Source of the DNA: a virus
Taxonomy: Duplodnaviria > Caudoviricetes
Length of the DNA: 64,000 bases
IMG/VR virus record: IMGVR_UViG_3300028833_005986
Coordinates: 1-64,000 of that record
Reading direction: 5' to 3' (one strand)
The notes under the pieces are model-generated. The model was given only the letters and a program-made list of their open reading frames with translations. It ran no database searches and had not been told where the DNA came from. A program made the translations under genes and the position numbers. Of the stretch, positions 1 through 56,972 are shown piece by piece (position 1 is the stretch's first letter; each line of letters opens with the position of its first letter).

Positions 1-3000
1 TTATTTTACAGCTTCTAAAACTTCTTGTAAATCATTTTTATTCTTTAATATTTTTTGCTGTTCTTTAAATAATTCTAATTCTTTACGCAGAGGATCTAAA
101 TAATCAGTATCTGCAGTATATTTATTTTTTTCAATAGATGCAATATATAAAGTCTTTTCTTTTTCTAAATTTTGTGGCTGAGAATAAAATAAAATTCGAT
201 TATTAGAATAAAATGTTACTGAACCACGATTATTTTTAGTTCCTGAATAATATATATAATTACCAACTATAAAATCTTTTTTATATTTATTAAATGTTGC
301 ATTATTAAAAGTTTGAGTAATAATTTCATATGGTGTAATAATTTCTACATGATATAAATGAACAATTTCTTTTATTACACCTTGTTCATCTTTTCTTGCA
401 TAATCGAAGGGTGCGATTTCTGTAATTAATCCACCTATATTACAAACTGTAGAAGCAGGAACCATTTGTACATGAGTAATTGATTTAGCTCCTACCATGG
501 GATGATATTTAAAGGATACTTTATCATTATTAAGTATATCATTTGCATACATTTGAAAATTAGTTAATTTACTATTTAAAATTGAATATTCATTATTAAT
601 AAATGGCTTTAATAATGAAGTAAGTTTATTATTTTCTTGAACTTTTTGCAATCGTCCTTTTGCTTTTTTTCTAGTAGAAATTAACTTAGCTAAATCATTT
701 TCATTAAATGTTTTATCAGCATTTGATCCATATATACCGAATTCATTTAATTTTGAAAATGGTACAATAATAGTATTATCTTTTTCAAATACTAATTGTC
801 TATCTTCTTGTAAAAATTTAGGTAATTGAATTTTTTCTAATATGTAATTTTTTTCAGCTTTTTGATTTTTATAATCATAATAAAATTCAAACCATGTAAG
901 TAATTCTCCTCGACTTAAATATATTGGCATTCTACCAAATAATTTATTTTCTTCAGTTAATGTTTTATCTTCGAAAATAATAGGTAATCCTTCAAAACAA
1001 TCATTATTAATTAATGTTTCAATTATTTTTTTATTAACTGCGCCTTTTGCCGCACGTGCAAAAAAATCATTAATGGAATCATAAGGTTGATTTTCTAAAA
1101 TAATCTGAATTGCTGCATTACCAATACCTTTTATTTGACCTAATCCAGTACGAATATAATCATCAGTAATAATAGCCTCAGATTGAGATAAATTTATATG
1201 AGGACCTAATATATTTATTCCTTTATGTTCTGCTTCTTGTTTATATAAAGCAAATTTAGAATTATCAAAAGTAATCATCGCTGCATAAAATGCGATCGGA
1301 TAATTAGCTTTTAACCAAGCCATTTGCATAGTTATTATTGAATATGCGTAAGCCGTTTAAAATATGGACTATATTTTAATATATATATTAAAGATTATTA
1401 GTCTCTGATATAATTTATTATATAAGTTAATAAGTATTAATTTAATTTATCATATAAAATATTACCTTTACGCAATATTCCAATATTATTATAATATATT
1501 TCATTTTTTAAAATTTGCATATTAGTAATTATACTTGTACTTAATTGATAAAATGGCATAGAATACTTTTTTCCTTGAATATTATGTAAATTTAAAGATT
1601 GCATATTAAACCAATTCTCTAATATATTTTTACACCAAGCTAAAAATTCTTTTGATGTACTTACAATATAAAATAACTTTCCATTATGTAATATGCAACC
1701 ATCACCATCAATAATGCCTTGAAATATATAAGGTAAAAATTGATATTCTTCAGGATATAAAATAGGTGGATATAAATTATATGTTTTATGATATACAATA
1801 CCAAATCGTCTTAGCTGTGATACTAATAATTGATTACCTAAAGTAAAATAATATATATTTTTTTTATACTTTATCAATTTATTAGATGAATTACAATTAT
1901 TATATGATCTGATTTTATACTTTATATTAAAATTATTAGCAAATAATATTACAGCTTCAAAATCAGTCATTCGTAAATCAATCTGATTTCTACAATTTAT
2001 ACAACCGTCAGTTAACATAATACCAATAAAATATGCTTTCCAAGCACAATCTAATAACGAAAAATCATAAGCATTATATATATATGTATTTAAATGATTT
2101 ATTGTTAACAAATATTTATTTACTTCATATGGTAATAAAATTTTTATAGGTGATACAATAGTTTCTAATTTATTTGAATGTCTAATAATATTACTATTAG
2201 TAATATTTTCATAGGTATGAATAATATTATATATACTATTACGTGTTTTATATTGATATTTTATACATAAATTTTTAACTGACATACCTGCTTTATAATC
2301 ATTAATAATATTTATAATCTTTTTATTTTGTAAAAATTCTTTATTTTGCATATTAATCCCATTCATTATATTAACTTATATAATTTTATTATATACTGAT
2401 TAATTTAAAATTATAAATTATTCCAGTAATTTTTCTTTTTAAGTCACACTAAATGACTTGCATTACTATAAATTATTATTAATTTTTTAAATTAATACTT
2501 TTTCATAAAAAGTATAGATTATATCATTATGTATATATTTAACAATTAATCGTTGATATTAATATATACTTGTATATATTAATATACTAATTATTACTAT
2601 TAAGTAATTTTTTAGTAAAATATTAAATCAAAAAAGTTCTAACAATTAAAACCATAACCTGATGATGCAAGAATAGTTTCTAACATATATTCTGCAACAT
2701 CTTTACTAAATCCGTTATTTATACTTTTTTCAACAAATGTATTAATAAAATCTTCATATTGTTCTGGAAATTTCTTCTTTTTTTCAATATATCGGCGTAA
2801 TTGATCTGCTTCGCCGAAGCTAATATTTAACATTGTACTTAATATTTGCATATATTTATATTTATAATTAATATTATATTAATTATATTAATTTTCATTA
2901 ATAATTTGGAATATATCTTTATCATTAATATTAAATATTTATTCTCTAGAGTAAATATATAATAATATATATTTACTTTGATATTAATATATATAATATA

Positions 3001-4748
3001 TTTCATCAAATTAAATTAATTAACAAAGTATATTATCTTTGTTCTTGAAATAAAATTACTCCGTAAGTACGATTTAAATAACGATCAATACGTGGATCTA
3101 TTTTTACTCTAAATTTCTGATCATTTTTTGCTTTAATATAAGTATCAACTTGACCTGAACCGGGGCGAATTAATGCTGTTACAGCTGCAACTTCATGAAT
3201 ATTATTAGGCTGTATTTTTCTTAGTATTGGTTTTGAAATTTTAATATTATCCATCTGAAAAATCCCAATAACATCTAAATCACATAATAAATTATAAGCT
3301 TTAGAATCATCTAATGGAATATTTTCTAATTTTATTTCGCCATGCATTTTTTGTGCAGCATCTACAGCATAATATTTTTTAATTAATTGAAGAACTAAAT
3401 CCATTTGGGATAAAGCCGAAAGTTTTAATCAATTATATATAGACTATATTTTTTTTCAATTATATATTTACTAAATATTAGTCGTTAAATACATATTAAT
3501 TTATGAATTAATATGTATTACTGATCTATTAATTCCAGTAATTAATAATATTAACCGACGCATAAACTTTACGTCTATCTTAACTAATCCAAAATTTTCA
3601 AAATTTTCTTTTTCTGCTTGAGCTAGATATCCTGGTTCAGTATCTGCATTAATTACTTTTGCTTGAGTAACTGGTAATAAATCTGTTACTGGTATTGGAG
3701 ATACTCCAACACCAGATGGATGCATTGATATTTGTCTAACTGTACCTTCTAATAATTTAGCATATTTTATTACATCTGGATATTTTTTAATAAATTCCTG
3801 TGCACCTGGTAATTTTTCTAAATTATCTATATGATCTATTGGATTTCCGTCTAAATCTCTATCAGGAATATTTTTAGTAAAATTATTTACTTCATCATAT
3901 GGTATACCTAATACACGACCAACATCTTTTATACATTGTTTCATTTGCATTTTCATAAATGTACATACATTGGCTACATATTCTTTCCCATATTTATCAA
4001 TTAAATGCTGAAATACTTGAGGACCTTTTAACATACAATAATCTGTATCTATATCCATTAACATTTATATTTTCATATAAAATTAGACTATCTCTTTTAA
4101 CTTTTATATAAAGCTAATTAAAACGCTTCGAATAGTAACTCATCTTCTATTCTACTAAAATTAGTCGTTACACATTTAATAAAGATAAACTTCAATAATA
4201 ATTCTTAAATAAACATTGATATTTAATAGTTTTATTTAATTGAGTATATTCTTTTAAATTTAAAAAATCTAATATTTTATTATTAATTGTCATATATCCA
4301 AATTTATCTTTATTATTTTGCACGGTATCACCAGCTATTTATTTTTTTTATATATAATATATTAAAAAAAAATAAACCTTAGGCTTTCTTAGTTAGCTAT
4401 TTATTATTTAATTATTAAGAATTAATTTTATTTTGCTAATACCGTTAGCAACAAAATTTAATATTTGTTACACTGCTGAGTTATGGCATTCATTTTAAAT
4501 GCCCAATATCGTTTAGGCAAATGCTTTCGAGTAGGATTTAAAAAACGTTCAAAAATAAGATCATAATCAATAGGATCCATTTTTGTTATTCCTAATAGAT
4601 TATTAACTACAGATCCTCCGCCAGAATTATGTACTACTAAGCCATCAATATTATATGAATGAATATCATCTATTTCTAAATCGTATACTTTACCTTTATA
4701 ATGATATTCTTTTTTATTGGTAATTTTAATTAATTTAATAAATATCAA
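1..4748 (-). CDS. dnaE: DNA polymerase III alpha subunit, C-terminal half, with N-terminal split-intein (IntC) leader; 6 exons (4748-4515, 4055-3571, 3429-~3041, ~2856-2644, 2460-2453, 1353-1), ~893 aa
   Basis: Removing five introns joins the DnaE motifs in frame: FERFLNP..LP|DIDTD, GLVKIDV|LKL, YGVILFQEQ|YMQI, GYGFN|SSH|AYAY..AWLKANYP, plus HhH GLGQIKGIG. The exon sum is 2682 nt, divisible by 3. The PHP/N-terminal half is absent from the window. Confidence 0.9.
1354..2452 (-). mobile_element. Group I intron dnaE-I5 (1099 nt) carrying a LAGLIDADG endonuclease ORF
   Basis: P1 AAGUCAU/GUGACUU with terminal U-G; AAUUACUGGAA P4-like element; P7 CAGAGACUA/AUAUAGUCC; ends AAACG before GCT TAC GCA TAT. 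Confidence 0.9.
1437..2366 (-). CDS. Intron-encoded LAGLIDADG homing endonuclease / possible maturase
   Basis: Two motifs, YFIGIMLTDG and IFQGIIDGDG, with an N-terminal HTH-like segment; lies inside dnaE-I5. Confidence 0.88.
   Translation of the reverse strand: MNGINMQNKEFLQNKKIINIINDYKAGMSVKNLCIKYQYKTRNSIYNIIHTYENITNSNIIRHSNKLETIVSPIKILLPYEVNKYLLTINHLNTYIYNAYDFSLLDCAWKAYFIGIMLTDGCINCRNQIDLRMTDFEAVILFANNFNIKYKIRSYNNCNSSNKLIKYKKNIYYFTLGNQLLVSQLRRFGIVYHKTYNLYPPILYPEEYQFLPYIFQGIIDGDGCILHNGKLFYIVSTSKEFLAWCKNILENWFNMQSLNLHNIQGKKYSMPFYQLSTSIITNMQILKNEIYYNNIGILRKGNILYDKLN
2461..2643 (-). mobile_element. Miniature group I intron dnaE-I4 (183 nt)
   Basis: Short P1 AAUU/GAUU; UCAACGAUUA...GAUAUAAUCU (P7 GAUUA/UAAUC); P9 hairpin AUACUUUUU-AUG-AAAAAGUAU; terminal G at 2461; restores GFN-SSH. 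Confidence 0.8.
2857..3040 (-). mobile_element. Miniature group I-like intron dnaE-I3 (184 nt, boundaries +/-2, non-canonical ends)
   Basis: 5' hairpin AACAAAG/CUUUGUU; CUAGAGAAUA...AAGAUAUAUUCC (P7 GAAUA/UAUUC). Removal restores FQEQ-YMQI, but the intron then ends in A. Confidence 0.7.
3430..3570 (-). mobile_element. Ultra-small group I intron dnaE-I2 (141 nt)
   Basis: P1 GACGU/GCGUC; P4 UUACUG/CAGUAA; 12-bp P6 hairpin; UUUAACGACUA...AUAUAGUCU; terminal G at 3430; GT|A restores KIDV-LKLSAL. Confidence 0.88.
4056..4514 (-). mobile_element. Group I intron dnaE-I1 (459 nt, ORF-less)
   Basis: P1 UGCCU/GGGCA; UGCUAACGGU; GUAACGACUA/GAGAUAGUCU; terminal G; restores HLP-DIDTD at the catalytic aspartates. 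Confidence 0.9.
4626..4748 (-). mobile_element. C-terminal fragment (IntC, 41 aa) of a naturally split intein
   Basis: KLIKIT...VYDLEIDDIHSYNIDGLVVHN followed by Ser+1 (SGGGS, the DnaE GRG-S site); no intein N-part or DnaE N-half upstream. Confidence 0.85.
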
Positions 4749-6611: not shown

Positions 6612-6614
6612 TCC

Positions 6615-13918: not shown

Positions 13919-15100
13919 TTATTTATTCAATTTATTAATATATTTTTTTGTGCATGAAATTATATTATCTACAATTTGATAAATATTATTTGATGCTATT
14001 ACTGCACCAGCAGCATGAGGAAAACCATTTCCGCCAAAATAAGACATGATTTCATTAACAAATATATTTCCCCGGCTACGGGCTTTAATTTTTGTATTAT
14101 TATTACTTTCGATAAAAAGAAATGCTACATCGGCTTCTTGTATATTTTTTAATTCTTCCATTAAATATTCTACTACATCATATGTAACATTATATTTTTT
14201 TAAATCTTCTTTCATTAATACTAAATATATAATATTATATTGATTATCATGAATAATATGTGTAAATGCATTATTAATTAGTTTTAATGCTGCTAACGGT
14301 TTTATTTTACATATTTGATTAATTATATTAAGATCTGCATTATTTTTTAATAATAATGATGCATAATATAATGCTAAAGCAGTAGTATTAGAATTTGTAA
14401 ATCCAGATCTAATAATTTATTAAAAAATCATTTTTAATATATTTTATATACCTCTTATAATAAGAGTAAAGACTAAATCATTAATAATATATTAACAATT
14501 TCAATAAATATTTACTATATATTAGCCGTTAATTTAGTATATATTATAATTAATATATGTTAAATATTGATAATATTCTTAAAGATTAAATACCAATAAT
14601 AAAATTAATTATGATATTAATTTAGTATCTCCAAAAATTCCTAAATATAAAGCTGTTGCGATTTGAGGAGTAATATTAATATTCATTTCTGATAAGAAAT
14701 CAAAAATTATCATTGTATTAGCAGGCCAAGAAATATTATAATAATAATTTCCAATTGATTCGTTATTATTATGATGATCTATAACAATTAATAATTTAGA
14801 TATGTTATCTAAATTAATTGTTCTATTCCGTGTAGAACAATCTACTAAAATGCATAAATCGTAATATTTTTTTGCTGTTTTTATTATATTAACATTTTTT
14901 AAAATTAAATTAAATATAGATGAATGTGAAGGCGCAATAATATCTACTTGCTTATTTAATGTTTGTAATGCTAAAGCTAATGCTACAGCAGATCCAATTG
15001 CATCGGCATCTGGAGAAAAATGGAAAGTTATTGCAATATTTTTAATTTGTTTATTATTAAATATATTTATAATTTTTTGCTTAATCTGAATTAAATCCAC
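13919..15100 (-). CDS. nrnA: DHH/DHHA1 phosphoesterase (NrnA-like), 2 exons (15100-14624, 14407-13919), ~321 aa
   Basis: H.SPDADAIGS, VD, IDHH, GIFGDT|SGFTNSNTT, GGNGFPHAAG; frame is open from 14407 to the stop. Confidence 0.85.
14408..14623 (-). mobile_element. Miniature group I intron in nrnA (216 nt, +/-1)
   Basis: P1 AGAUACU/GGUAUUU; UUAACGGCUA...GAUUUAGUCU; removal restores DT-SGF. Confidence 0.82.
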
Positions 15101-17583: not shown

Positions 17584-19988
17584 TTATTTTAAAATTAAAT
17601 TGTTTGCTATTTTATCAGTAATAATTATAGAATTAATATCATTTCTATCTGGAATATCATATTCAATTTTTGATAAAGCAGAACTAATAATACTTTTTAA
17701 TCCTCTAGCATTTGTTTTTTTATTAATAGCAAGTTTAGCAATTAGTTGTAATACTTCAGTAGTAAATTGTAAATTAACCTTATCCATTTGAAATAATTCT
17801 TGATATTGCTTTATAATAGCATTATTAGGTTCTGTTAATATTTTTATTAAATCATTTTCAGTTAAATGATTATAAATTACTATTTGCGGAATACGCCCTA
17901 CTAATTCTGGAATTAATCCATAATTAATTAAATCATTAGTAGTAACTTGTTTTAATAATTCATCTACTGTATATTTTTTATCTTCATATCCAAAACCAAT
18001 ATGTTTTTTATTAATACGATTTTTAATAACTGTATCTAATCCTACAAATGCACCAGACAATACAAATAAAATATTACTTGTATCAATTTCTACAGTATTA
18101 TCTAATAATGGTGTATGTTTATTACCCAATTGCACTTGTATTTTATCGCCTTCTAATAATTTTAAAAATTCTTGTTGTAAAGCAACACCCGCGACATCTC
18201 TGCCACTAGTAGTTTGCATATTTCTAGCTGTTTTATCAAATTCATCAATTAATATAATTGCTTTTTCAGCCTGAGATATATCATTATTACATTCTTTAAT
18301 TGCATGTGCAAGAATATCAGTTATATCTCGTCCTACTATGCCTGATACTGTTACAGAAGTTATTGATTCTAATATTAACGGTCTATCTAATAATTTTGCG
18401 AGTGCTTTAAATGTCGCCGTATTATGTGTAACAATAAAATCTTTACATATATATGTATGAGTAGGAGAATCAACAGTTATACATTTCATTTCTGCTTTAG
18501 TATTTAATTTTTGAACATTTTTAATTTTTAATATATCATATGTATGTTTTTTATTAGGACATTTTCTTTGATTAAATCTTTCTTTATGTTTTTTAGAAGT
18601 AAATAATACATCACTATCAGAACATATATATATAATATATGCTTGATTATCATGTCTATTATCTACTCGTAATTTAACTCTATAACCTAACGAATAAATT
18701 AAAAATTTAAAATCTTCTGCTAATTGTTTCGATACAGTACAAAAACTAATATGTCCTTTATTATTAATATGGCCATCAGTATCAATTAATCCTCGTACTA
18801 ATTCCAATCTATCTTCTATTGAAGAATATTTATATTCATTAGGAATAAATTTATCTTTAGCTAAGCAATATCCAAATGTATTTTTTATATAATTTCTTAA
18901 TTTAGATGAATCTGTATTTCGATATGTATGTCTTAACGGATATTTAGGATTAGTAACAAATTCGCCTAAATCATTATCTACAGTTAAGCATTTTATTTTT
19001 TCAATTAAATCATTTTCCGGGTTCGTAAAAACAATATCTTTACCAAAATGTCCATCACCTAATAATAGACCTAATAAATAAGGCGGTATTTCTAAATCTT
19101 TTTTATCAAATTGAATTGGTTTATTAATAGGAATAGCAATATTATATGTATAAGATTTTTTAGATTGAACTTGTATCCGCTGAATTATATTTTTAATTGA
19201 ATCAACACACCATTTACTTAAATTAAATCCATTATGATATCGTGTTTTAAACATCCATAAATGATCTTCACAACATTTTATTGATGTATTATCAATAAAT
19301 GTAATAAGCCATTCTTGCTTTAATTCATTTTGTGGATATTCTGCAATTACAGTAGTTAATTGTCCCATACTATCATAAACTACTGATCCAACATGAATAT
19401 CTTTTAACTGAACAAATCCAGAAGGAGTTAAAATCGGCGTATCTATAGGTAAACATTTTCCAACGCCGCTTTCCCCAATACAAAACATATTAGTACGATC
19501 TAAAGCATCTTTTTCACCATCTAAATTACTATTATACTGTATTTGTTTTTGATGTTCATATAATAATGTTGCTACTGTTTTTTTAGCATCTTCTTGACTA
19601 ATAATATATTTATCTAACCAAGCTTTTATTTCACTGGGCTTTTTTAATTCGTTAGTATTGTAAATTTCTTCATCTTTTTCTTGACTAAGAATTGTATCTA
19701 TATATTTTACTTTATTTTTACATAAAGTATAGACTATATCTTTTATTTCAATTATTATAATTTACTGTATTATAGTCGTTGAATAATATTTATTACTAAT
19801 GAAATTTTATTAAAACTATCTTAGTAATTATTTTCACATACAAATGCAATTAATTTTTACATCATAGATATACAATCAGAACAAACGCAAACATCGGCTG
19901 TTAAATCCATACCTTGCGAGACAATCATTTTTTTACTATCATCATGAGATTTACCACAAAAACTACATACATATTTTTTCTTTTTCAT
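17584..19988 (-). CDS. clpX: ClpX ATPase; 2 exons (19988-19859, 19697-17584) plus intein; ~402 aa mature
   Basis: Unannotated exon 1 encodes the CSFCGK..CVCSDC zinc finger after an AAGGAG RBS. Exon 2 has PSEIKAWLDKYIISQ, Walker A, DEFDK, GRDV, IGF loop and PELVGR. Confidence 0.92.
18421..19455 (-). mobile_element. Intein (345 aa) with LAGLIDADG domain in the ClpX Walker A motif
   Basis: GVGK|CLPIDT...FIVTHN|T; LLGLLLGDG and VRGLIDTDG. Confidence 0.92.
19698..19858 (-). mobile_element. Miniature group I intron in clpX (161 nt)
   Basis: P1 GAUGU/GCAUU; UUACUAA/UUAGUAA; UUCAACGACUA...AAGAUAUAGUCU; terminal G; T|AT restores CISMM-Y-TIL. Confidence 0.9.
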
Positions 19989-20017
19989 ATTAGACTCCTT
20001 ATATTTTTTAATATTAC

Positions 20018-20168
20018 TAATTACTTTTTATTCTATAATGCTTTTTAATTAAAATAAAAAAAAAGACTAGATAAATTTTATCTATATTTTCTAATATTGT
20101 TAATTATTTTTTATTCTAAAATACTTTTTAATTAAAATAAAAAAAAATTAGATAAATTTTATTTATCT
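20018..20168. repeat. Imperfect tandem duplication (~80 bp unit) between gyrA and clpX
   Basis: taattac/tttttattcta..tttttaattaaaataaaaaaaa..tagataaattttat occurs twice. Confidence 0.6.
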
Positions 20169-20170
20169 CA

Positions 20171-23100
20171 TTAAAAATTAATAATTGCTGGTTCATAATT
20201 TAATTTTATCGGTTTTGAAATTTTCGTTCCTGATTCTAATTGCGCAGTATCAATTAATCTAATTCTCCCACGATTATCAAGATTAACATATTTATCTGCT
20301 ACAATTATCATTTTATGAACATATCCTGGATCTTTATTCGCAAATTGTACATAAGATGATCCTTTATTAATTCGAGATTTTATTCCTACAATAGTATTAT
20401 CTAGCATTTTATATCCAAATCCGCCATTAATCTGTTTAGTATATATAATTATTTTATAAGCCGCGTTATATTTAGTAATACTTACACTATTAACAATATC
20501 TTCGTTTTTTAATGAAATAGCCGGAATGCCTTTCTTATTTGCAGTTAATGATTCTTTAAATGATTGTTCATAAAACCGATTAATAATTCCCTTTTGCGAA
20601 ATTAATGTAATAATATTATCTTTATCACTATTAATTCGCTGCGCATGAATAATTTTATCTGAATTTTCAAAATTACTAAAAATTGGTGCTAATTTTTTAT
20701 TCCGAGCTTTAAAACCAGATTCATTAATTTTTAACATTAAACCATTTTGAGTAAAACATGTAATATATTGATTATTATTGTTTAAGATAAATATATATAT
20801 AATATTTTCTTTACTATTCCATGCTAATAAATCAGTAAATGTTAATTTTATATAATTATTATTTTCTAAAATAACTAAAAATAAATCATTAGTTTTACAT
20901 TGAATTATTTGCTTATATATTTCATTTTTTTCTTTTAATACACCTGAACGAAAATTACTATTATATATTTCTTGTGAAATAAGATATATATTATTTTTAT
21001 GAGTTAATATTAATAATGCATCTTGTACTTCAACTTTTTCTATTACTTCATTATTAATTAATTGCGTACGACGATTATCACCGAATCTTGTTTTTAAATC
21101 TTCTAATTGATTAATAATTTTTTGATCTACTAATGCTGGAGTATTTAATAATTGATTGGTATCAGCTATTTCTATAGTTAATTTTTTAATATTATTAAGA
21201 ATATCATTTTTATTTAATTTAGTTAATCGTCGTAATTTAAATTCTAAAATAGCTTCTGCTTGATTATCATCTAAATTAAAATAAGATTTTAATTGTTCTT
21301 TCGCATCTTTATCAGTTTCTGCTTGCTCAATTAATTTAATCGCCGTGGATAAAGAATTAACAATTATATTTATTCCATTTTGAATATGTAATTTATCATT
21401 TAATCTATTCAAAATAATTTTATTTTCTTTATTAATGCATTCTCTACGATGCTGTAAATAACAATTAAAATATTCTTTTAAAGAAAATACTTTCGGAGTA
21501 TTATCTAATATTGCTCTTATTATAAATGAACAATTTTTTATTAATTCAGTCTGATTAAATAATTCATTTATAGTCAGATCTATAATAGCATTTTTTGATA
21601 ATTCAATAATTATATTAGTATGTATAGTTGATAAATCTTTTATATTACTAACGCCAGGAATTTTTTTATCAATTAAACATAATTGTTGTAATTTTTCTAC
21701 TAATTTTTCTCTATTAACTTCTGGAGGCAATTCATTAATAATAATATTATTATTTTTTAACTCATATTTAGCCTTAAATGTTAATTTTCCTTGTCCAGTC
21801 TCATATAATTTTTTTATTTCGTTGTTATTAATTAATAATGAACCTGATGGAAAATCCGGACAAGGCATAATTTTCATTAATTCATCTAATGTAATATTAT
21901 TATTTTTTATATAAGCAATAATAGCATTACATAATTCATTTAAATTATGCGAGGGAATATTTGTAGAATATCCTACAGCAATGCCTTGGGTGCCATTAGC
22001 CAATAAATTAGGAAATATTCCAGGCAAAGTAATAGGTTCTTGTGTAATATCAGAATAATTAGATTTAAAATCAACAGCTTTATTATTAATTCCATCCATA
22101 TTAAATTCAGCTAATTTATTTAATTTTGCTTCGGTATTATGATTAATAAATCCATTAGCTGTAAATGAATGACATTCGCTATTTACTTTTATAGAATATA
22201 CGTGTTTTTCTTTAATTGATAATTTTTTATTAATAATTTTAGAATATACAAAATCTCTATTAGTAATTAAATCTTCATTATATAAATTAATTATTTCACG
22301 AAGTATATTTATTTTTTCGTCAGATATAAAATTAATATTTTTATAAAACCAATATAAATCTTGATATTGATTAATTTTTAATTTAAAGGTTTTCTTCTTC
22401 TTATTTGGTATTTCGTATACAGTTGATACAATTCCAAATTGTAATAATAATATTTGTATTTGTTGAAGAAAATATTTATATTTAGACGAATATAAAATAA
22501 AGCACTTTTTACCTTGTTTTGCATCATTAAAAATACTAACTTGTGCGTGATTTTCGAATAAATATAATAAGAATATTTTTTGAATATATTTTGACGATTT
22601 TAAAATAACAGACGGTATGGATATGTTATTAATAACATAATCATAATTTTCTCGTAAAAATTGATATAATATTTTACTATTAATAGTAATTTCATATAAA
22701 AATTGACGTTTTAACTTTCTAATTTTTACATTTAATTTGCTAGTAATATTTAAATCTATTATTAATCTTTGTAAATAATTAAATAAAAAATTATGTAAAT
22801 ATTGATTATAAGTTCGTATTTTACAATGCCAATATCCGCCATTAGGTAAATGTCTGATAGAAGAATTAGCTAAAAAAGTACCTATAAATTGAGCTTGTTC
22901 TTCATTAGCTATATCCCAATCTGCACTAATTTGATCTTGTTTACAATTGATTACTGCAATATCTCCTTCTTTAACTTCTTCTAATAATTTCCATTTATAT
23001 AAATTATTATCTAATACTAATATAGGATGATTATATGTACCTGATAATTCAAAACCATGTTCAGTATTTATAGTAAACACTGAATGCATATCTGAATCAA

Positions 23101-23632
23101 ACCATTTATTTGCTCTATTATGTTGATTAATTGATTCAACATATAATCCTCGATCTACATAATCTTGTAAATTTTGAATTGGAATTAAACCATAATTAGT
23201 ATTTACTAACGTACCTTCAACTACACAATAACGCATATGAGCAGCTGGATCTCCTACATCATTGCCAACATTTCCATGAAAAGAAATTAATGGATAACGA
23301 TTAGTCCAAGGCTGTGCCATAGCTACTAATGCTTGATATATTGAAGCATCACCATGGGGATGAAAATCACCCATTACATCACCGACATATTTAGCACATT
23401 TTATAAATGGACCATTATATAAATATTTTTTATTCCAACCAGTATATAAAATGCGTCGTTGAACAGGCTTCATACCATCATTGATTAATGGTAATGAACG
23501 ATCTTTTATTACTTCAATTGCATAATTTAACATTGCCAGTGATAATTCATCTGCTAAATCTACATCTTGTATATTTTCTTTTTTTAATAATTCATTTATA
23601 TTTATTTCTTTATGCTTCGATTTTTTACTCAT
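20171..23632 (-). CDS. gyrA: Type IIA topoisomerase subunit A (GyrA/ParC-like) with intein
   Basis: DGMKPVQRR, HPHGD, AHMRY|TEAK, GIAVG..TNIPSHN, PDFP motifs. Confidence 0.92.
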   Translation of the reverse strand: MSKKSKHKEININELLKKENIQDVDLADELSLAMLNYAIEVIKDRSLPLINDGMKPVQRRILYTGWNKKYLYNGPFIKCAKYVGDVMGDFHPHGDASIYQALVAMAQPWTNRYPLISFHGNVGNDVGDPAAHMRYCVVEGTLVNTNYGLIPIQNLQDYVDRGLYVESINQHNRANKWFDSDMHSVFTINTEHGFELSGTYNHPILVLDNNLYKWKLLEEVKEGDIAVINCKQDQISADWDIANEEQAQFIGTFLANSSIRHLPNGGYWHCKIRTYNQYLHNFLFNYLQRLIIDLNITSKLNVKIRKLKRQFLYEITINSKILYQFLRENYDYVINNISIPSVILKSSKYIQKIFLLYLFENHAQVSIFNDAKQGKKCFILYSSKYKYFLQQIQILLLQFGIVSTVYEIPNKKKKTFKLKINQYQDLYWFYKNINFISDEKINILREIINLYNEDLITNRDFVYSKIINKKLSIKEKHVYSIKVNSECHSFTANGFINHNTEAKLNKLAEFNMDGINNKAVDFKSNYSDITQEPITLPGIFPNLLANGTQGIAVGYSTNIPSHNLNELCNAIIAYIKNNNITLDELMKIMPCPDFPSGSLLINNNEIKKLYETGQGKLTFKAKYELKNNNIIINELPPEVNREKLVEKLQQLCLIDKKIPGVSNIKDLSTIHTNIIIELSKNAIIDLTINELFNQTELIKNCSFIIRAILDNTPKVFSLKEYFNCYLQHRRECINKENKIILNRLNDKLHIQNGINIIVNSLSTAIKLIEQAETDKDAKEQLKSYFNLDDNQAEAILEFKLRRLTKLNKNDILNNIKKLTIEIADTNQLLNTPALVDQKIINQLEDLKTRFGDNRRTQLINNEVIEKVEVQDALLILTHKNNIYLISQEIYNSNFRSGVLKEKNEIYKQIIQCKTNDLFLVILENNNYIKLTFTDLLAWNSKENIIYIFILNNNNQYITCFTQNGLMLKINESGFKARNKKLAPIFSNFENSDKIIHAQRINSDKDNIITLISQKGIINRFYEQSFKESLTANKKGIPAISLKNEDIVNSVSITKYNAAYKIIIYTKQINGGFGYKMLDNTIVGIKSRINKGSSYVQFANKDPGYVHKMIIVADKYVNLDNRGRIRLIDTAQLESGTKISKPIKLNYEPAIINF
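22136..23227 (-). mobile_element. Intein (364 aa) directly after the catalytic Tyr of GyrA; endonuclease motifs degenerate
   Basis: RY|CVVEGT...TYNHP...VYSIKV..FTANGFINHN|T. Confidence 0.92.
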
Positions 23633-25844: not shown

Positions 25845-28537
25845 TTAGATATTATTAATTAAATATGCGTTATCTTCAATAAATTTTTTACGTAATACTG
25901 TATCAGTTCCCATACAAATTTTTAATGTTTCTTCAGCTTTAAGTGCATCATTAATTGTTATACGTTTTAAAATGCGTTTTGCAGGGTCTAAAATCGTTTC
26001 TTTTATTTCGTCAACCGACATTTCACCAATCATATATTATATACTGACTATCTCTTCACTATTAATAATAATAGGTTAACTTTTTCAAAAAGCGTACTAA
26101 TAACTTTCTTACTTATAATTAGTCGATACAGATTTGATTCCAATTTATACCATACCAAATATTACTAAAATATTTTTAAATTGTCCAATATTATATTACT
26201 TAGTAATATTATTAGTAATTTTATAAATTCCACATTTCATTTTTAAATACTTCGCCTTAGGAATAATATAAAATTATGTATAAATTATAATCACTTTCCA
26301 CGGGATTAATATTATCATCTTCCCCGTTAGCATATATTATATTTTTTATATTTAATATATACCCTAATAGTAAATTAGAAAAATTAATACAGGCTGGTTT
26401 CTGTCAACCTTTGAAGCGCTGTAGTTCAAAATTTAATGTAAAATTTTTATTTTTCCATTGCTGTAAAGCATTATCATCTCTTAAATATATACTTTGATTT
26501 TTATTATAAATTGCTCTATATAATGGCGGAATCGCAGCATATAAATGTCCTCGATTTATTATATCACGCATATATTTATGTAATAGAACAATTAATAATG
26601 CTTTTATATGCAGGCCATCCGAATAATTATTATATTTATTATAATAAATATATTCATATTATAATATGAATTTAGATTATATCTTTTTTATATAAAAATT
26701 AATATATAATCGTTGAATTTATTTTATATTATAATATATAAAAATTACTAATTTAATTTATATAGAAATTATTCTTAGTAATTAAATAATTTTTTAATGT
26801 CAATAATCAACATCTGCGTCAGTTAAAATTATAATTTTATCATATCGTAATTTAGCAACATCAAAATTTTTTCCAAATCCTGTACCAAATGACTGAATAA
26901 TACGTTGAATAGAAGGCGAATTAACAATTTGTTCTAATGAAGCTTTTTCAACGTTTAAAACTTTACCTCTTAATGGTAATACAGCTTGAAATTCTGTACT
27001 TATTCTTCCTGCAACAGTTGATCCAGCTGCTGAATTCAATTTTATATTATATACTAATTTTTAGTATATTCTTAATTTTTGTATTAAGTTAAGATTATGT
27101 CTTTATTCTATATTTTTTTTATAATCGTTAAATTATTTTTCATAATTAAATTTTATTACATAAAAATTATTATGAAAATAAATTATAAGTATATATAATT
27201 TTATATATTTCTTATAATTAAAAAATTATAGGCAATTATTTACCTTCTACAATGAAAATTTCTGAATATTGATTAGTACCTGCATTAATACAATCAGATA
27301 ATTGTGCTGGTAATAATGATTTTTTAGTTACTTTATTACTAATTCTTTTTTCAATTCGAGCTTTTCTTGCAGCTTCATCCGCGTCTTTTAATTGAATTAC
27401 ATAATTTATAATATTTAAAATTAATTGTTTAAATTCGTTATTTTTTAATTGCTTTTTAAAATATTCATTTAATACATTTTCTATTACAGGTATTATTTCT
27501 ACAGAATTTAATTTAATTTTTGTCTGGCCTTCAAATGAAGGATTAGTCATTTTTATATTAATAATTAAATACATATTATCTAAATAATATTTTTGATCTA
27601 TCGGTGTTTTAAATAATTTATTTTTTATTCCAAAATTATTTAAAATTTCTACTAAACTTTTAATAGTAGTATTAACATGAGTTCCACCTGTATATGTATT
27701 TATATTATTACAAAATGATTTAATAAATGATAATGATTCCAATTCTTTATTTATTAAAAATATAATTTCTACATTATTACCATTAATATATATTGGTTCT
27801 TCAAATAATAATTTTTTATCTTTAACTAATTGCTTTATATAAGAATTTAATCCATCAGCATAACAAAATTGTTCTTTACTATTATTTAATTCATTAATAA
27901 AATTAATTGTTAATCCTGAATTTAAAGCTGCTAATTCTTGTAATCTATTTTTTATTTCATTACTAGGAAATATAGTTTGTTTAAATATAGACTTATCCGG
28001 TTTATAATAAATTTCTGTTCCAGTTATTTTATTATTATTTTCGTCTAATTCAGTTTGACCAATAACTTCTACATCTGTAATGGGAATACCTTTTTCAAAC
28101 TTTTGCTGATATATATTACCATCTCGATGTACTGTTACAATAAAAAAATCACTTAAAAAATTAACAGCAGATGATCCTACACCAAATTGACCAGAACTAA
28201 ATTTATATTGATCATTATTATATTTCCCACCTGCCATAAGTCGATTAAATGCTAGAGTCAAACTATTTATATCATTACCATCAGCGTCTTTAGTCATAGA
28301 ACATGGTACTCCTCGACCATAATCTCTAACTCGTACTGATCCATTTTTATATATATGTATATTTATAATATTACCATATCCAGCTAAAAATTCATCAATG
28401 GAATTATCAACTATTTCATATAATAATTGATTAATACCATGTTCATTAGTAGACGCAATATACATTGACGGTCGTAATCGAACATGCTCTCTATCCGTTA
28501 AAGCTTTTATAGATTCTGCATTATATTCATTGTTCAT
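25845..28537 (-). CDS. gyrB: Type IIA topoisomerase subunit B (GyrB/ParE-like); 4 exons (28537-27242, 27036-26809, 26619-26407, 26030-25845), 640 aa
   Basis: Splicing restores VEG|NSAAGS, PLRGK, TDADV|DGLHI and QRFKG|IGEM. Exon 3 is missing from the ORF track. Exon sum 1923 nt. Confidence 0.93.
26031..26406 (-). mobile_element. Group I intron gyrB-I3 (376 nt)
   Basis: P1 AGGUUG/CAGCCU; UGCUAACGGGGAA..CCCGUGGAAAG; GUAUCGACUA/GAGAUAGUC; terminal G. Confidence 0.9.
26620..26808 (-). mobile_element. Miniature group I intron gyrB-I2 (189 nt)
   Basis: P1 AUGUU/GACAU; UUCAACGAUUA...AAGAUAUAAUCU; ends AUUCG. Confidence 0.88.
27037..27241 (-). mobile_element. Miniature group I intron gyrB-I1 (205 nt)
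   Basis: P1 AGGU/GCCU; UUUAACGAUUA...AAGACAUAAUCU; ends AUUG. Confidence 0.88.
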
Positions 28538-29958: not shown

Positions 29959-29959
29959 T

Positions 29960-30300: not shown

Positions 30301-30614
30301 TATAAATTATGTAATAATTGATATGCTGAAACGCAATCTTTTATGTAATCATTTATTTCTTGACTATTAGATATATATTCTTCAGCTCCAATATGAACAG
30401 AAATATCACTTTCACTATAAAAACAAGGATATGCAAAAATATATATAAATAAATGACTTTTATTAATATATAACTGATGTATACGGTATAACTCATTTCG
30501 TATTTCTTCACGCAATTCTTTATTAATTATACAATTATAATAATGTGATAATATTGAATCAATATCATTAATATATTTATTAATTAATTCCTTATCTTTT
30601 TCCGTTATATACAT
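30300..30614 (-). CDS. Hypothetical protein between the IscB loci
   Basis: ORF with GAAAGG RBS. Confidence 0.65.
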   Translation of the reverse strand: MYITEKDKELINKYINDIDSILSHYYNCIINKELREEIRNELYRIHQLYINKSHLFIYIFAYPCFYSESDISVHIGAEEYISNSQEINDYIKDCVSAYQLLHNL

Positions 30615-30659: not shown

Positions 30660-31961
30660 TCAATTCCATATATATTTTCCACATCTCTGTATCAACTTCA
30701 CCTTACTATACATAGGCCTTATTTCTCTACGTAATTCTATCTTATCTCCTTTACGCTTACTCGGTATTCTTATCCATCTTTCCTGTCGCATTTTTAATGC
30801 TAATGGGCCGCTTTCTGCCCTACCATTCACATACCAGTATCTATTCAGATATCTCACTATATCATAGCGCCTATATCCATTCTTCTCATAACTCTGTATA
30901 TTCCTCTTCTTCACATTGTCTTTTAAAATTTTATCTTTATATATCTTTCTATTATGATTTCGCACTTTCTTCATATAATATACTTGACTATCATGCTTAC
31001 TTCGCTTATAGCAGTTATCTGCTATTATTCTTGCATCTATATGATGGTCTTTTTCTAATTCCAACTGTACTCTTTTTATTTTAGTTTCATATCCATATGT
31101 CTTCTCTACGTCATATCCTAATTTTATTAGTTCCTTATATATTCTATCCTTAAGTATATTTAATTTTGTATCTTCTTTATATTCTCTTATATTAAATCTT
31201 ACTGTCTTATTTTTCTTTAAGTATTCATGTACTTGTTTATGACAATGTTCACATAAAGTAACCAAATTTTCTGGTACATTAGTACCTCCTTGGCTTCTAG
31301 GCTTTATGTGATGTACTTGTAATTTTATATTATTCTTTTTTAAATCTTCTAAAGATTTTTTACATCTTTGACAAGTATACTTATCTCTTTTTCTTGCATA
31401 AGATTTTGCATTTTCTTCTTGATATAAATCACCTTGTTGATACTGTATACCTTGTATATTAGGATCTTTTAATTTTTGAATATCAAACTTATTATATTCA
31501 TATTTCATTTTATCTATATTAATATATTTATTAAAAAATTTAACAATATTAATATAAGTTAATAAGCTAGCTTGTATAGATGATGGTATCCACCCATCAA
31601 CTTGTTTATTATATATTTTTCTTTTATTTTGCCACCTAGATGGTCTATATCTCAATCTATTTCTTCTTGTTCTACGTGCACTTCTTCTAGCTTCTAGTAA
31701 TTTAGGTATATCAGTCCTTTGCTCTAATTGAGCCTCAAAGAGGACGCGTTGTTTAGTAGTAATAGAAATACCTATTGTTTTGCCAGGATCTACGCCTATA
31801 GTAGCGTCTTGAAGTTTAGGATTATCAATTTGGTAATTAAGTTTAATAGTAAAAGGAAAAGTTTTAATGATTTTAGCTTTTTTCTTTTTTAATAATATTC
31901 TAGCTTTAGCAGGATGAGTAGGCATTAATGCCTTACCATCTTTATTAAAAACGAAAACCAT
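30660..31961 (-). CDS. iscB: IscB RNA-guided nuclease (OMEGA), copy 2
   Basis: Close paralogue of copy 1 with the same motifs; start moved to MVFVF at 31961 (AAAGGAG RBS, alignment to copy 1). Confidence 0.92.
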   Translation of the reverse strand: MVFVFNKDGKALMPTHPAKARILLKKKKAKIIKTFPFTIKLNYQIDNPKLQDATIGVDPGKTIGISITTKQRVLFEAQLEQRTDIPKLLEARRSARRTRRNRLRYRPSRWQNKRKIYNKQVDGWIPSSIQASLLTYINIVKFFNKYINIDKMKYEYNKFDIQKLKDPNIQGIQYQQGDLYQEENAKSYARKRDKYTCQRCKKSLEDLKKNNIKLQVHHIKPRSQGGTNVPENLVTLCEHCHKQVHEYLKKNKTVRFNIREYKEDTKLNILKDRIYKELIKLGYDVEKTYGYETKIKRVQLELEKDHHIDARIIADNCYKRSKHDSQVYYMKKVRNHNRKIYKDKILKDNVKKRNIQSYEKNGYRRYDIVRYLNRYWYVNGRAESGPLALKMRQERWIRIPSKRKGDKIELRREIRPMYSKVKLIQRCGKYIWN

Positions 31962-31962
31962 C

Positions 31963-32323
31963 TTTAATACTCCTTTGTGAAAAGGATTTATAATCATAAT
32001 ACTTATTTATATTAATTTAATACTTATTTATATTAATTTAATACTTATATGAAATATTCATATTAAATTGCTATAAATAGTAAATAAACTCCCATGCTAA
32101 AGTTATCTCATGTTTTAATTTTACCTACATAGTAGGTAAAATATGACTATAACACTGTTACTTTATATATTAAGAGATACTCAAGTAGGAATATATAAAG
32201 TAACTGTTTAATTATAATCCGTAGAGTTTTAAACTGGAAGAACACTTAAAAGTACCTATAATATAATGAGATAACGTAGTCTACTCTGTAGACTTAAGCT
32301 GATAGGTTAATTGAGTATTAACC
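31963..32323 (-). ncRNA. omega-RNA of IscB copy 2
   Basis: Near-identical to 29960-30300, with one swapped hairpin and a 21-nt tandem duplication near the 3' end. Confidence 0.82.
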
Positions 32324-32350
32324 TATAATTCCTCATACATATTTTTCTCC

Positions 32351-34182: not shown

Positions 34183-37100
34183 TTATTGATCTTCTTCAAA
34201 CATTTTTTCGCTTACTAAATCATTATACAGTTTATTTTCAAGTTTTTTTCTAGCGTCTCCGTCCTCAACGGTATTTTGCTTTTCAATAACCCATTTAGGC
34301 GGATATTTATATATAGAAGTTTTTATTCCATTAGCATATTTAGTTTTAGCAGCTTGTCCCATAGATGCTTGCATAAAATTTATATATGTTTCCATTATAC
34401 CTTCTATAGTAATTCCTGTATCTCCGTTTCTTCGTTCTTTCCCGCGTTCATTAGCAGCCATATTATACCACTTAGATATAAATGATTTAGGAGTTCTAAT
34501 ATAAGCTAAACCATGACACAATTTAGCATCTGAACTTTTTAAATATCGTTTTACTTCTTCTTTTATGTCTGATAAATCTTGTAAAGCAGCTAATCCAATT
34601 GAAGATAATAAAGTATTAGCATCACTTACAGCATCTGCGATATACTGTAATTCTTCATCAATATTTATATTTTTAAATACTGTAAGTTTTCCCTTAAAGC
34701 CTTCTGCTTCTGCTTCTACTTGTTCCTTTTCCATTTCTGTATGAAGTTTATTAAAACGATTACTAATATTATATTTACCAGTTCCAAAAAATGCTACAGC
34801 AAATGGAGAAATCCTACCATATTGATCACAACAGCCTTCAATATAAGGCTCGACTCGAGCATGAATTGCTTTTATTTTTTGTAAACCTTCGTCAGTATTA
34901 ATATCAATATTATATAAAGTATTTATAAAATAAAATAATACTGATTGTCGTTTTTTATTATCTAATTCTAATATCGTATTACGTAATCTTTTTTGTATTC
35001 CTAATAAAATTTGTTCTTGTATTTTACCTAATTGATTTATTTTAATTAACCAATTTTTATTTAATTGGTGTAAATCTTTATCATAATAATCGTCTTCATA
35101 TTCTTTTTGAGTATCATATAATTGATTAAATATATTATTATATATCTGTTTTGCGGTACATTTTCCCCATACCGAATCTTTATATATAATATCAATAGAA
35201 TTCGCAATATTAAAACGCTTAAATGTTTTCCATAAATTTATATTTTCTCCGTATTTTATTAATAAGCATGTTTGAGTTTTTGTGCTATTATAAATTTTTA
35301 TATAGAATTGAGTATTTTCTTCTTCTCCAAAATTTTGCATTATTGAATTATTAGCTTCATTTTCATTGTTATCTGGATTTCTTGCTGCTATATTTTGATT
35401 TGATATCCATGTTTGAATTAAGCTATAAATATTATGCGGGTGATTACCGGATTTATTATTTTTTAATAATTTTCTGAATAAATATTAAAATTATATTTTT
35501 AATATTAAAATAAAATATTTTTAATATCTTTTAAAATAGATTTTAATATATTATACTTATATTTATGTATAAGCATAGATTATATCTTTATATAAAAATT
35601 ATATAAATAAAATTCAACAAAAATATTTACTATATATAATCGTTATATTATTTATTATAAATTTATAATGAATAATTATGAATTTTAATATAATTATTAT
35701 ATTTTCATAAATTATATTAATTATGCTACTTTATATATAAATAGCTTCATTAATATCATTAATTCTTTCGGTTGAGCATAATTCATTTATTTGATTTATG
35801 AAACTACCAATACTCGTACGATAGCTAGTTAATAAATTTGATATACGCTGTTTAGGATGCAGTTCTTCCCATGTTGCTATATTATCTTTAATAATTTGTG
35901 TACTAGATTTTAAACTGCATAAATCATCAATCATTTTTCGAAGATATTTTATAACTGTATGCCATCTTTCTGGAGAAAACTTTTTTTTAGCTTGTGCAGA
36001 ATTAGAATCGCGCTTTTTCATATATACGTCATTTAATTTTTGTAAAGTTTCTTCTAACGATGAAAATCCGCCATGTGATAATTCTAAAAAATCATCTAAT
36101 TTTTGATTATTAATTACATTTATAATTTCTCCAAAAGACTGATTCGTTACAGGTGTAATAAAATTATTTTTAGAATTTAAGGCCTTATATTTATTATTAA
36201 AGCATGTGTTACGGTATCTTTGTAATTTACTAGTATTATTTTTAATAGCATCAGTTAATTCTTTTAAAGTAGTAATATCATTTAATATAGGATTATTACT
36301 AAATGTTGAAGCTAAATTTAATGCTAATTGTCTAGCTCGTAAAAAGACATTATTATCGAATTCTTCTAATTTAGCATTTTCTTCAATAGTTAAATTCAAA
36401 TTTAATAAATTACGGCGTATATTAACTATACTACGTAATTGAGAAATAATAATATCAGCTTGTTTTGAAGTTAACTCCTTATCTTTTACGCGTTGATATA
36501 ATTTTTCAATTATATCATTACCAAAATATCTATGACATTCTTCTAAATTAAATTGCTCAATACCTTGTGGATCTAATAATATTTTACGATTATTAACCTT
36601 TTTAATAACATCTGGATCTGTTAATGCTGATTCGTCATATTTATCATAAATATTTGAATTTTTTAAAATTGTATCAAAAATAGCTCTTTTTAAATTATCA
36701 AATAATTGTTGATATTTATTTATATTAATAGATGCAAAGGAATTTAAACCTTCAACTATAGCTTTACGTAATTCGGTATACTGTTCAGATGCCAATGAAT
36801 TAACTTGTACTTGTTGATATTTTTTAAAAAAAATTTCAATTCGTCTTATTAAGGCAAAAAAACCATATACTTTGTTAAGCGTAGCTTCGCTATCTTGTGA
36901 ATCTTTTACGCCTTCTTTATAAATTTTATATATCTGATTAACAATACGTTCTTTATTAACATTAGTATATTCATTATGCGCACGATTTAACCAAGAAAAA
37001 GATGTAGCATAAATTGAATCTTTAATAATTGGTAGTAAATCAGCATAATATTTAGCTTGTTTTAAAAATTGCCTTATAAATCGAGCGAATCGCAATTGAA

Positions 37101-54569: not shown

Positions 54570-54596
54570 ATAAAAAAAAGACATTAATGTCTTTTA
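54570..54596 (-). terminator. Probable intrinsic terminator
   Basis: AAAAGACAU-UA-AUGUCUUUUUUUU after the helicase stop. Confidence 0.5.
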
Positions 54597-54616
54597 CTAA
54601 AGATAAGCAAAAAATA

Positions 54617-56972
54617 TTAATGCCTCAACGGCTTTAAATTATAATCTAATAAATTCATAGGAAACATTTTTATATTAAACGCTGGTTCTTGCTTATATAA
54701 TCTATTACGTACTTGAGCTTGCCGTAATAACATTGGAGTAGAATCTCTAAAATCATACACAAATGCTCTATTTTTACCTTCGCATTTACGAAGTACACGG
54801 CCAATTCTTTGTAGAGCACGTGTAGATGATTTTCCTCCTCCTGCAAGAATCAGACAATCAGCTGATGGAATATCCAAACCTTCATCTGCAATAGTAGTAC
54901 AAATTAGAATTTTGCATAATTTTTCTCTGAAAGCTTGAATAGTAGCATTTCGTTTTAAAGAAGCATCACTACCTGATAAAAATTCTATTTCACTAACTTT
55001 AGCTGGTAATTTTTTATTACTACCAGTTTTTGATGCTTCAATCATAAATGCTTCATTACTAATATATTGTTGTAATAATCTTAAAATCATTTCACCATGT
55101 TCTATACGCTGAACTAAGATTAATATAGTTGCATTCTTTGCTTTACGCATTTGATAAGCAATTTTTACTATATCCATATTACGTTCACGATTACAAACAA
55201 TAGCTTCACGATATAGATCATTATAATTTTTTTGTGGAAATACTCGTTGATGCTTTACCCAAAAAATATCACAAGGCGTTATATAGCCTTGATTTATTAA
55301 TTCACTAGCTGTAACTTTATTATTAGGCAGCGGCCGGGCACATATAGCATCAATTAATAAATCAGAATTATCTGACCTCCACGGAGTGGCAGAAACTCCA
55401 ATACGATAATAAGCATTTACACACCATTTACTTACATCATTTAAAGTATTACATGGTAAATGATGACATTCATCAAATAATAATAATTTAGTATCTTTTA
55501 CCATTTCTTCTGTAGCTGATTGTGCAGAAAAAACAGTAATATCTTGTACATCTCTTGTTCCACCACCAACTAGACCAATCGGTTCGCCTAAAAATTTTTC
55601 AAATTCACTTTTTAATTGAGTACATAAACTAATTTGATTTGCAAAAATTGAAACTGGCTTTACATTAAATTTTGCAACTAATCCTGCCATCATTAATGTA
55701 TTATGTGTAACAATAAAATCTTTACATATAAATGTATGCTTAGGAGAATCAACAGTAATACATTTCATTTCCTTTTTTATATTTAATTTTTGAATATTAA
55801 CAATTCTTAAAGTATTAATATTTAATATTTGAAATATATTATTACCTTGTTTAGAAACACGATATCCTAATGAATATAATAAAAACTTAACATAATTCAT
55901 TAAATTATCATTATAAATATAAACATGATTTTCATCTATATAATGTGCTTGCATTAATCCTTTTAAAAAAGCTGTTCGTTCATCAACAGATGAATAAAGA
56001 TAATTTTTAATATTATATTGTTTTAATATATCGCGATTATTTTCTCTATTAACTAAAAATCCAAAATCATATGGAGATAATATAAAATATCTTCGATAAT
56101 ATTGAATTGGCTTATTAACTGGAATTTGCATATCTATAACTAAATCTTTACATGCAATAATTTGTTCTTCTGATCCATTAATAACTTTCCATAAATGATC
56201 TTGACAACATTCTATTTTAGTTGCATCAGCAAAAGTAATTTCATATATTTCTTTTTCGCCTTGATAAAATTCTTTTAATACTCTTGTTTGGTTGCCATCT
56301 TCATCATATACTATACTACCAGGATGAATATCTTCTAACTTAACCCACCCGTTGGGTGTAAGAATATTCGTATCTAATGGCATTGCTTTACCCAAATTTA
56401 TTATTATAAATAAAATTTATACTATTTATTAAAATATTTTAAAATAAATAGGTTAGTATATATCTTCTTTATTAAAGTTATAATTAATATACGTTGATAT
56501 ATTAATAAAAATTTTTATTAATATATTCTGATTATTATATTTTTCAGAAATAATTATAATTAAGTAGCAATAAATTACTACTAGTTGCAGCTTGAATAAT
56601 ATCTCTCGGACGACAATTATCTATAATTTTTTGCTGATAATCTCTAACTTTTAATTCTTGAGTTCTTTCTTTATCTAAATATTTAACTAATGAATAATCA
56701 GCATTCGGTTGCCAAGCAACTCTTTTATCAATAATTTTATATTCTTCTTTATTTTCTTCTAAAATTTCAATAATATAATCTAATAATCCGGTATAACTCT
56801 TTTTTGTAATACGATTAAATAAATGTCTAACTTGTGGAATTGAATTGGGATTATATTCTTGTATTTCAAAAGATAATTTATCCCAAATTTTAAATTCTAT
56901 ATTATTACTTGCATATTTTACTTCTACATATACATTATCTATGTGCAATTCAATCAAATTCATCACTTCCAT
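54617..56972 (-). CDS. SF2 DEAD/H helicase (UvsW-like); 2 exons (56972-56577, 56392-54617) plus intein; ~494 aa mature
   Basis: RDYQ, AATSS|GK-[intein]-T, DECH, SATP, EGLDIP, QRIGRVLR. Confidence 0.9.
55700..56386 (-). mobile_element. Class 3-type intein (229 aa, Ala1) in the helicase Walker A motif
   Basis: GK|AMPLDT...DHLW...MKCITV...VTHN|T, giving the W/C/T signature; endonuclease eroded. Confidence 0.88.
56393..56576 (-). mobile_element. Miniature group I intron in the helicase (184 nt)
   Basis: P1 AGUAGU/GCUACU; UCAACGUAUA...AAGAUAUAUACU (P7 GUAUA/UAUAC); ends UUUG. Confidence 0.87.

Follow-up and report, generated by a model that had tools for sequence, protein, structure and literature searches.

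The twelve insertions that interrupt six genes in a 64,000-nucleotide (nt) stretch of viral DNA (the window; positions 1 to 64,000 of IMG/VR record IMGVR_UViG_3300028833_005986) are, judged from their sequences, genuine group I introns, and the family they form is a reduced variant of group I rather than a new class. The record comprises 166,990 nt at 23% guanine plus cytosine (GC) and is 34% complete according to CheckV; the window is its first 64 kilobases (kb). Because its structural proteins are nearest, among annotated phages, to those of Bacillus phage G, the genome is to all appearances that of a phage-G-like jumbo phage of ~490 kb, of which the record holds a part. Relatives of the phage stem from gut metagenomes, with ruminants inferred from sample names. 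An earlier note on this DNA had placed the twelve insertions in six genes; their number and places, all on the minus strand, were confirmed, with all twelve sizes exact to the base. The introns, with the micro-exon and the open reading frame (ORF) that belong to dnaE, are as follows:

dnaE-I1, 4056..4514, minus strand: 459 nt, full-size IA2-like (paired elements P7.2, P3, P8 and P9), no ORF
dnaE-I2, 3430..3570, minus strand: 141 nt, 17% GC, no P2, P5 region of 10 nt
dnaE-I3, 2853..3036, minus strand: 184 nt, 8% GC, P7 position 3 switched to A-U
dnaE-I4, 2466..2648, minus strand: 183 nt, 12% GC, no P2, vestigial P8, GNRA-capped P9
dnaE micro-exon, 2453..2465, minus strand: 13 nt between I4 and I5, completing the GFNxSH motif
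dnaE-I5, 1354..2452, minus strand: 1099 nt, ORF set between P4 and P7, optional in relatives
I5 ORF, 1437..2366, minus strand: 309 amino acids (aa), LAGLIDADG-like endonuclease
nrnA (DHH) intron, 14409..14624, minus strand: 216 nt, 12% GC, IA2-derived subtype
clpX intron, 19698..19858, minus strand: 161 nt, 15% GC, P6 of 4 base pairs (bp), P3/P8 ambiguous
gyrB-I1, 27037..27241, minus strand: 205 nt, 10% GC, at EG/NS
gyrB-I2, 26620..26808, minus strand: 189 nt, 8.5% GC, at DV/DG, P8 absent or 1 bp
gyrB-I3, 26031..26406, minus strand: 376 nt, full-size IA2-like, at KG/IG, absent in relatives L331 and L334
unknown-gene intron, 35474..35740, minus strand: 267 nt, 8% GC, in a large gene
SF2 helicase intron, 56393..56576, minus strand: 184 nt, 10% GC, inside Walker A (SS/GK), adjoining an intein

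Together the introns total 3,664 nt, and every one of them contains in-frame stops. With the introns excised, dnaE, nrnA, clpX, gyrB and the SF2 helicase gene are open from start to stop, and in these five named genes the junctions are gap-free against intron-less homologs, which bears out the predicted restoration of frame. No such relative was found for the sixth gene, whose flanks weakly match one continuous 899-aa protein of L331; its junction is not fixed by homology, and what supports the join is P1, the terminal G and the frame. In alignments of the conceptually spliced C-terminal half of DnaE (893 aa) with seven relatives, which are 41-88% identical to it, every junction is free of gaps; the intron-less proteins of L011 likewise match NrnA and ClpX across their junctions. 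The search for intron-less alleles that had been proposed was successful, since near-identical dnaE alleles lack single introns: alleles more than 90% identical and without I1, I2 or both display the predicted dnaE joins. I1, which splits LP/DID, is missing from P0136 and P0139, and I2 from P0139, P0141 and P0001. The I3 join yields Q-S-M, as in the intron-less P0002, and gyrB is uninterrupted at the I2 site in phage G and L337. The 3' end of dnaE-I4 is fixed by the relative L348, which is without I5 and corrects to 13 nt a micro-exon given earlier as 8 nt. A search of viral contigs for loci related to dnaE or gyrB found none, and a blastn search with gyrB-I2 against annotated phages gave no match. 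Intron sizes are reported only where homology, or P1 together with frame, fixes the ends, as automatic boundary calling is unreliable in AU-rich DNA. The gene layout recurs in independent assemblies, which rules out local mis-assembly.

The structural evidence for group I identity is centred on P7, the element whose fixed part is the guanosine-binding G-C pair. Although pairing was not required by the search, both variable P7 positions are paired in 34/34 cores of the genome, in six combinations, and the same search in the reversed genome returned 0 cores, in agreement with the P7-forming motifs noticed earlier. The bulge and closing pair of P7 covary in 45/49 cores, and the SF2 helicase intron carries a P7 variant with two compensatory changes. 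Introns pair better with their own exon partners than with swapped ones in P1 (scores of 10.9 and 4.0, p 5e-5, 16 introns); boundaries were partly chosen with P1 in view, yet they are held to 1-2 nt by protein homology. The same comparison for P3 gave 11.7 against 8.8 (p 5e-5, 29 short cores). These permutation tests ignore kinship among introns, so that the p values are optimistic. P4 comprises 6 bp with 28 different sequence pairs in 49 cores, its pairing being required by the finder. Four relatives have orthologs of the gyrB introns in which P3, P4 and P7 have changed in a compensatory way; those of gyrB-I1 (188-244 nt, in L331, L334, L337 and L340) change in P3 and P4, including a T-A to C-G replacement in P3 of the L334 ortholog. 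In a profile search, 11 window cores score above the best match in the reversed genome, the profile being a sequence profile from an anchored alignment that its training members match by construction. The twelfth core, gyrB-I3, was found by the P7 scan, and the window set is complete. Matches in P4-anchored pattern scans were mostly chance.

The splice sites are largely canonical. The 5' splice pair is U.G in 10/12 introns, with C.A in nrnA and G-C in dnaE-I3; the earlier claim of P1 pairing for all twelve is supported by the comparison of own with swapped partners, whereas the canonical U.G is missing from two. The last base is G in 11/12 introns, the exception again being dnaE-I3, which ends in A in this genome and in G in L348 and L349. 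The relatives place this terminal G immediately before the T-ATG exon start, and the G-C pair at the 5' splice site is kept in L348 despite a far longer P1 loop. Taking the G of the downstream ATG as the end of dnaE-I3 was rejected, as it would delete a conserved residue. An intron of the same subfamily, 189 nt long at 159,148-159,336 of the genome (G000; L005 15,148-15,336), also ends in A; it is the nearest kin of dnaE-I3 in the set, and its join is fixed by intron-less homologs. A terminal A in two subfamily members makes sequencing error a less likely explanation.

Rfam scans called no group I intron. The best match to RF00028 reached 17 bits against a cut-off of 50 and covered a J8/7-P9 fragment only. 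The comparison with Rfam that had been suggested thus places all twelve below the group I cut-off, but it does not set the small introns apart, as the same model also misses the full-size dnaE-I1 and gyrB-I3; the miss is a sensitivity limit of one model.

The interrupted genes are alive. The ratio of nonsynonymous to synonymous substitution rates (dN/dS) in downstream exons is 0.03-0.48, including pairs of relatives that share the introns: 0.14 and 0.33 for gyrB exons 3' of shared introns, 0.11 and 0.19 for dnaE, and 0.03 for the short exon that separates I3 from I4 in dnaE. It had been foreseen that standard annotation would label these genes pseudogenes, a call that this purifying selection shows to be misleading; disabling exon mutations in relatives had been named as a sign of dead genes, and purifying selection on the downstream exons was found instead. 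Since the genes are still under selection and intron-less alleles exist, the introns are almost certainly excised from the mRNA. Against a divergence of 34% at synonymous sites, the orthologs of I2, I3 and I4 have diverged by only 4%, 11% and 2% (the I2 ortholog in L348 is 96% identical), a conservation that may mean constraint, recent homing or both.

What distinguishes the family is the extent of its loss. Nine window introns are compact, with a mere 25-32 nt between the 5' splice site and P4, which leaves no space for P2. In about ten members, 3-9 nt and 0-2 bp separate P3 from J8/7, so that P8 would be effectively gone; the others have a P8 of 3-7 bp. P2 and P8 dock on each other in canonical introns, and their joint loss is therefore coherent. 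P9 is also absent from the smallest members, namely dnaE-I2 (141 nt, ending in a 12-nt tail), two introns of 131 and 138 nt beyond the window and, in L334, a gyrA intron of 120 nt. The last of these (L334 14,374-14,493), in the gyrA active-site region and with 4 nt after P7, is the smallest seen. A GNRA-capped P9 is retained in many members, and the smallest retain relatively GC-rich P1, P4 and P7. The 26 ORF-less members with defined ends have a median length of 187 nt and a mean GC of 13%, and the ORF-less members span 8-21% GC. P7.1/P7.2, seen by eye in dnaE-I1 and gyrB-I3, is eroded in a longer subtype and absent in a short one, and the longer subtype looks like eroded IA2 introns. What stands of the description as a reduced A/U-rich class is a reduced, AU-rich family with six of the twelve below 200 nt (141-189 nt, 83-92% A/U), alongside the ordinary full-size IA2-like dnaE-I1 and gyrB-I3; what does not stand is its rank as a class apart from group I.

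The 167 kb of the genome hold at least 41 cores, twelve of them in the window, in replication, tail and unknown genes; baseplate-region and capsid genes are also hosts, the latter in the related contig G001. There the major capsid gene (L262 3,846-7,346, minus strand, equal to L195) holds nine introns and ten exons, each exon 60-95% identical to gp27 of phage G. The fifth of these introns (~436 nt) may contain a second or nested core. G001 may belong to the same phage as the window or to a very close one, since its TnpB element resembles those of this genome as much as they resemble one another. A small gene at 91,395-92,930 of G000 (L002 7,395-8,930) is cut by five mini-introns of differing P7 types, one of them 131 nt long.

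The distribution of the introns is as would be expected of mobile parasites, in that single introns are present or absent among near-identical alleles. The gyrB-I2 site is also occupied in L331 (177 nt) and L334 (186 nt), and L009 holds a shorter, near-identical copy of dnaE-I1. Alike introns occupy unrelated sites, which suggests ectopic spread or core exchange. As had been stated, only one window intron is protein-coding: the sole intact ORF is that of dnaE-I5 (Pfam LAGLIDADG_3, E 1.5e-4, narrowly below the cut-off; PHROG endonuclease, E 4e-23), and gyrB-I3 carries a decayed GIY-YIG-like remnant only (~26180-26250, minus strand, read by eye from the sequence). None of the 12 window introns contains an ORF of the IS200/IS605 or IS607 family. 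Elsewhere in the genome, five or six IStron-like elements combine a core with TnpB (G000 70-72, 78-80, 108-112 and 164-167 kb; L001, L003, L006), and shorter derivatives without TnpB lie at 73.2 and 118.4 kb. TnpA was looked for in both fragments, this genome and G001, and none was found. The genome also contains two IscB elements and several endonucleases, and G001 carries a group II intron with a reverse transcriptase ORF at ~24.3-26.6 kb (L350 2,851-5,053).

Other intervening and mobile elements accompany the introns in the window. A trans-splicing intein divides DnaE. Its C-part opens the gene in the window (4515-4748, minus strand), and in L010 (20233-21786) the PHP half of DnaE is a separate gene ending in the intein N-part. 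The N-terminal half was looked for in this fragment and in G001 and is absent from both. The SF2 helicase intein (54617-56395, minus strand) starts two codons past the intron, and clpX and gyrA also contain inteins, the latter with a LAGLIDADG domain (17584-23632, minus strand). Directly upstream of gyrB lie two tandem IscB-like HNH genes (28606-30303 and 30660-32326, minus strand), each preceded by a HEARO/omega-RNA-like element.

The Azoarcus tRNA-Ile intron, the textbook small group I intron, is 205 nt long, GC-rich, keeps P2, P8 and P9, and self-splices. Compared with it, the present miniatures have P5 and P6 regions of similar length, are 20-85 nt shorter and consist mostly of A/U. The novelty claimed for them earlier was overstated. 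According to a published report, Jug phages carry 18.5 small, mostly ORF-less group I introns per genome in essential genes, with model matches of ~206 nt and RNA support for 37/76 (PMC12880540). The swarm described here is of the same kind, its members being small, mostly ORF-less and in essential genes of a gut jumbo phage. With the profile we also scored loci of 230-400-kb gut phages, probably of the Jug type, which hold trains of ~160-210-nt introns and micro-exons; L141 12,300-13,560 and similar loci among L130-L209 have five or six group I introns per train. The Jug-type introns inspected keep a small P2 and mostly P8 at ~28% GC, whereas here P2 is missing, P8 often vestigial and P9 sometimes absent, mean GC is 13%, the P7 sequence is variable and the host is phage-G-like. 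Closer in design are the gyrB introns of the Staphylococcus jumbo phages MarsHill (~155 nt) and AH12 (~144 nt), which have no P8 and little or no P2 and are likewise missed by Rfam; they differ in their 22-25% GC, canonical P7 and AR9-like phage hosts. The introns of MarsHill, Madawaska, Machias and AH12 were published as exon boundaries from protein alignment only (10.1101/2020.12.14.422802). No description of a miniature architecture without P2 and P8 was found in an open-access library, which misses most subscription journals. The design extends beyond this phage, and its most extreme version is seen in this lineage, with introns of as little as 120 nt, 8-21% GC, a variable P7 and non-canonical ends.

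More distant likenesses exist. A subset of myxomycete L1949 introns lacks P8, as about ten members here seem to, but these are nuclear rDNA introns, vertically inherited and with large peripheral insertions, in contrast to miniature, optional introns in mRNA. Diderma S529 and L2066, also in nuclear rDNA, share with dnaE-I3 the G:C 5' pair and the terminal A, respectively. By eye, dnaE-I1 and gyrB-I3 appear to share the P7.1/P7.2 layout of td-type IA2 introns of T4 (PMC3984707), and IA2 descent is suggested for the longer miniature subtype and, beyond the window, for the copies with TnpB; unlike td-type introns and IStrons, most members are without an ORF and peripheral helices.

In our interpretation, the introns are very probably selfish elements that splice by the standard guanosine-dependent group I pathway and would have settled in conserved motifs of a phage-G-like rumen jumbo phage. 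Free guanosine at the invariant P7 G-C pair would cut the 5' site marked by P1; the last base of the intron would then enter the same pocket, and P10 would align the exons for ligation. The ORF-less members would have shrunk to a P1-P3-P4-P5-P6-P7 core: P2 and P8, which dock on each other, would have been lost jointly, P9 as well in the smallest, and the GC content would have drifted to 8-21%. More tentatively, they may spread by homing for which the many endonucleases act in trans, and occasional moves to new sites may be due to the TnpB-carrying IStron-like relatives or to reverse splicing with a borrowed reverse transcriptase. Several observations weigh against this picture. P3 was not detected directly after P7 in 20 longer cores (p 0.71) and is ambiguous in dnaE-I2, as is its P8, and in clpX; whole-intron folding, at z -0.5 to -1.9, is scarcely better than that of shuffles; both ends of dnaE-I3 are non-canonical in this genome; and the high intron conservation could partly reflect recent homing, not selection. 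The Diderma S529 and L2066 introns both self-splice (PMC3679873), so that each of the dnaE-I3 deviations, taken singly, is compatible with self-splicing. The absence of a full Rfam match and of the terminal G in dnaE-I3 might be taken to indicate dead remnants or assembly artefacts in pseudogenes, an explanation that is largely refuted and now extremely improbable: the layout is the same in independent assemblies, downstream exons are under purifying selection, introns show compensatory changes, and an essential capsid gene with nine insertions retains every exon. Hardly more credible are domesticated gates that time replication genes, as the earlier note proposed. dnaE does combine five introns with a split intein, and each intron blocks translation until removed, but introns also sit in structural genes (tail, baseplate-region, capsid), are optional among near-identical alleles, lack any visible ligand-binding or shared regulatory module, and occupy conserved motifs, the usual targets of parasites.

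How much help guanosine-dependent splicing needs is a separate matter. The trans-acting helper raised in the earlier note is a plausible requirement. We lean slightly towards efficient splicing only with general helpers, such as ribosomes and host or phage RNA-binding proteins, and with no dedicated maturase. Such helpers are suggested by the weak folding, by the P8-less myxomycete L1949 introns, which do not self-splice in vitro and need host factors (PMC3679873), and by T4 introns, which are assisted by the ribosome, StpA and S12 (PMC3984707). Self-splicing of the naked RNA, which would make members of 120-141 nt the smallest natural group I ribozymes, is possible but doubtful. The catalytic-core elements are all retained, with relatively GC-rich P1, P4 and P7 in the smallest members and a GNRA-capped P9 in many, and engineered miniribozymes without peripheral helices stay active; against this stand the 8-21% GC and folding energies of ~-0.13 to -0.18 kcal/mol per base, compared with -0.25 for a Jug-type intron. 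The natural P8-less introns examined in PMC3679873, moreover, failed to self-splice in vitro. An obligatory helper role for the I5 endonuclease is unlikely, as L348 has I2, I3 and I4 without I5; a similar protein elsewhere in the L348 genome would leave help of this type conceivable. It is improbable, finally, that a single dedicated phage factor stands in for P2, P8 and P9 in dozens of introns, as part of an obligate RNA-protein machine with relaxed splice-site rules (G-C pair, terminal A). The uniform loss of P2 and P8 over dozens of copies would fit such a factor, a shared helper would be favoured by so high a load (41 in 167 kb, and nine in a single capsid gene), and in a genome 34% complete the unseen two-thirds could hide its gene, a further point against reliance on general helpers. 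Against such a factor, Staphylococcus jumbo phages that are unrelated share the design, the I5 protein, as the most obvious candidate, can be absent, and no candidate gene was identified.

Natural group I introns of 120-190 nt without P2 and P8 in indispensable phage genes would set a new lower size bound for functional members of the group. They make testable the question of what the minimal core is, and what proteins or ribosomes supply once the periphery is gone; either answer would be useful, as it would reveal a very small ribozyme or a splicing helper, and the cultured Staphylococcus phages with the same design provide a bench system. Because Rfam misses all of these introns, annotation of such phages leaves their polymerase, gyrase, capsid and tail genes in pieces. 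Should the obligate RNA-protein machine prove true, it would offer, in viruses of bacteria, a counterpart to the beginnings of trans-acting splicing systems.

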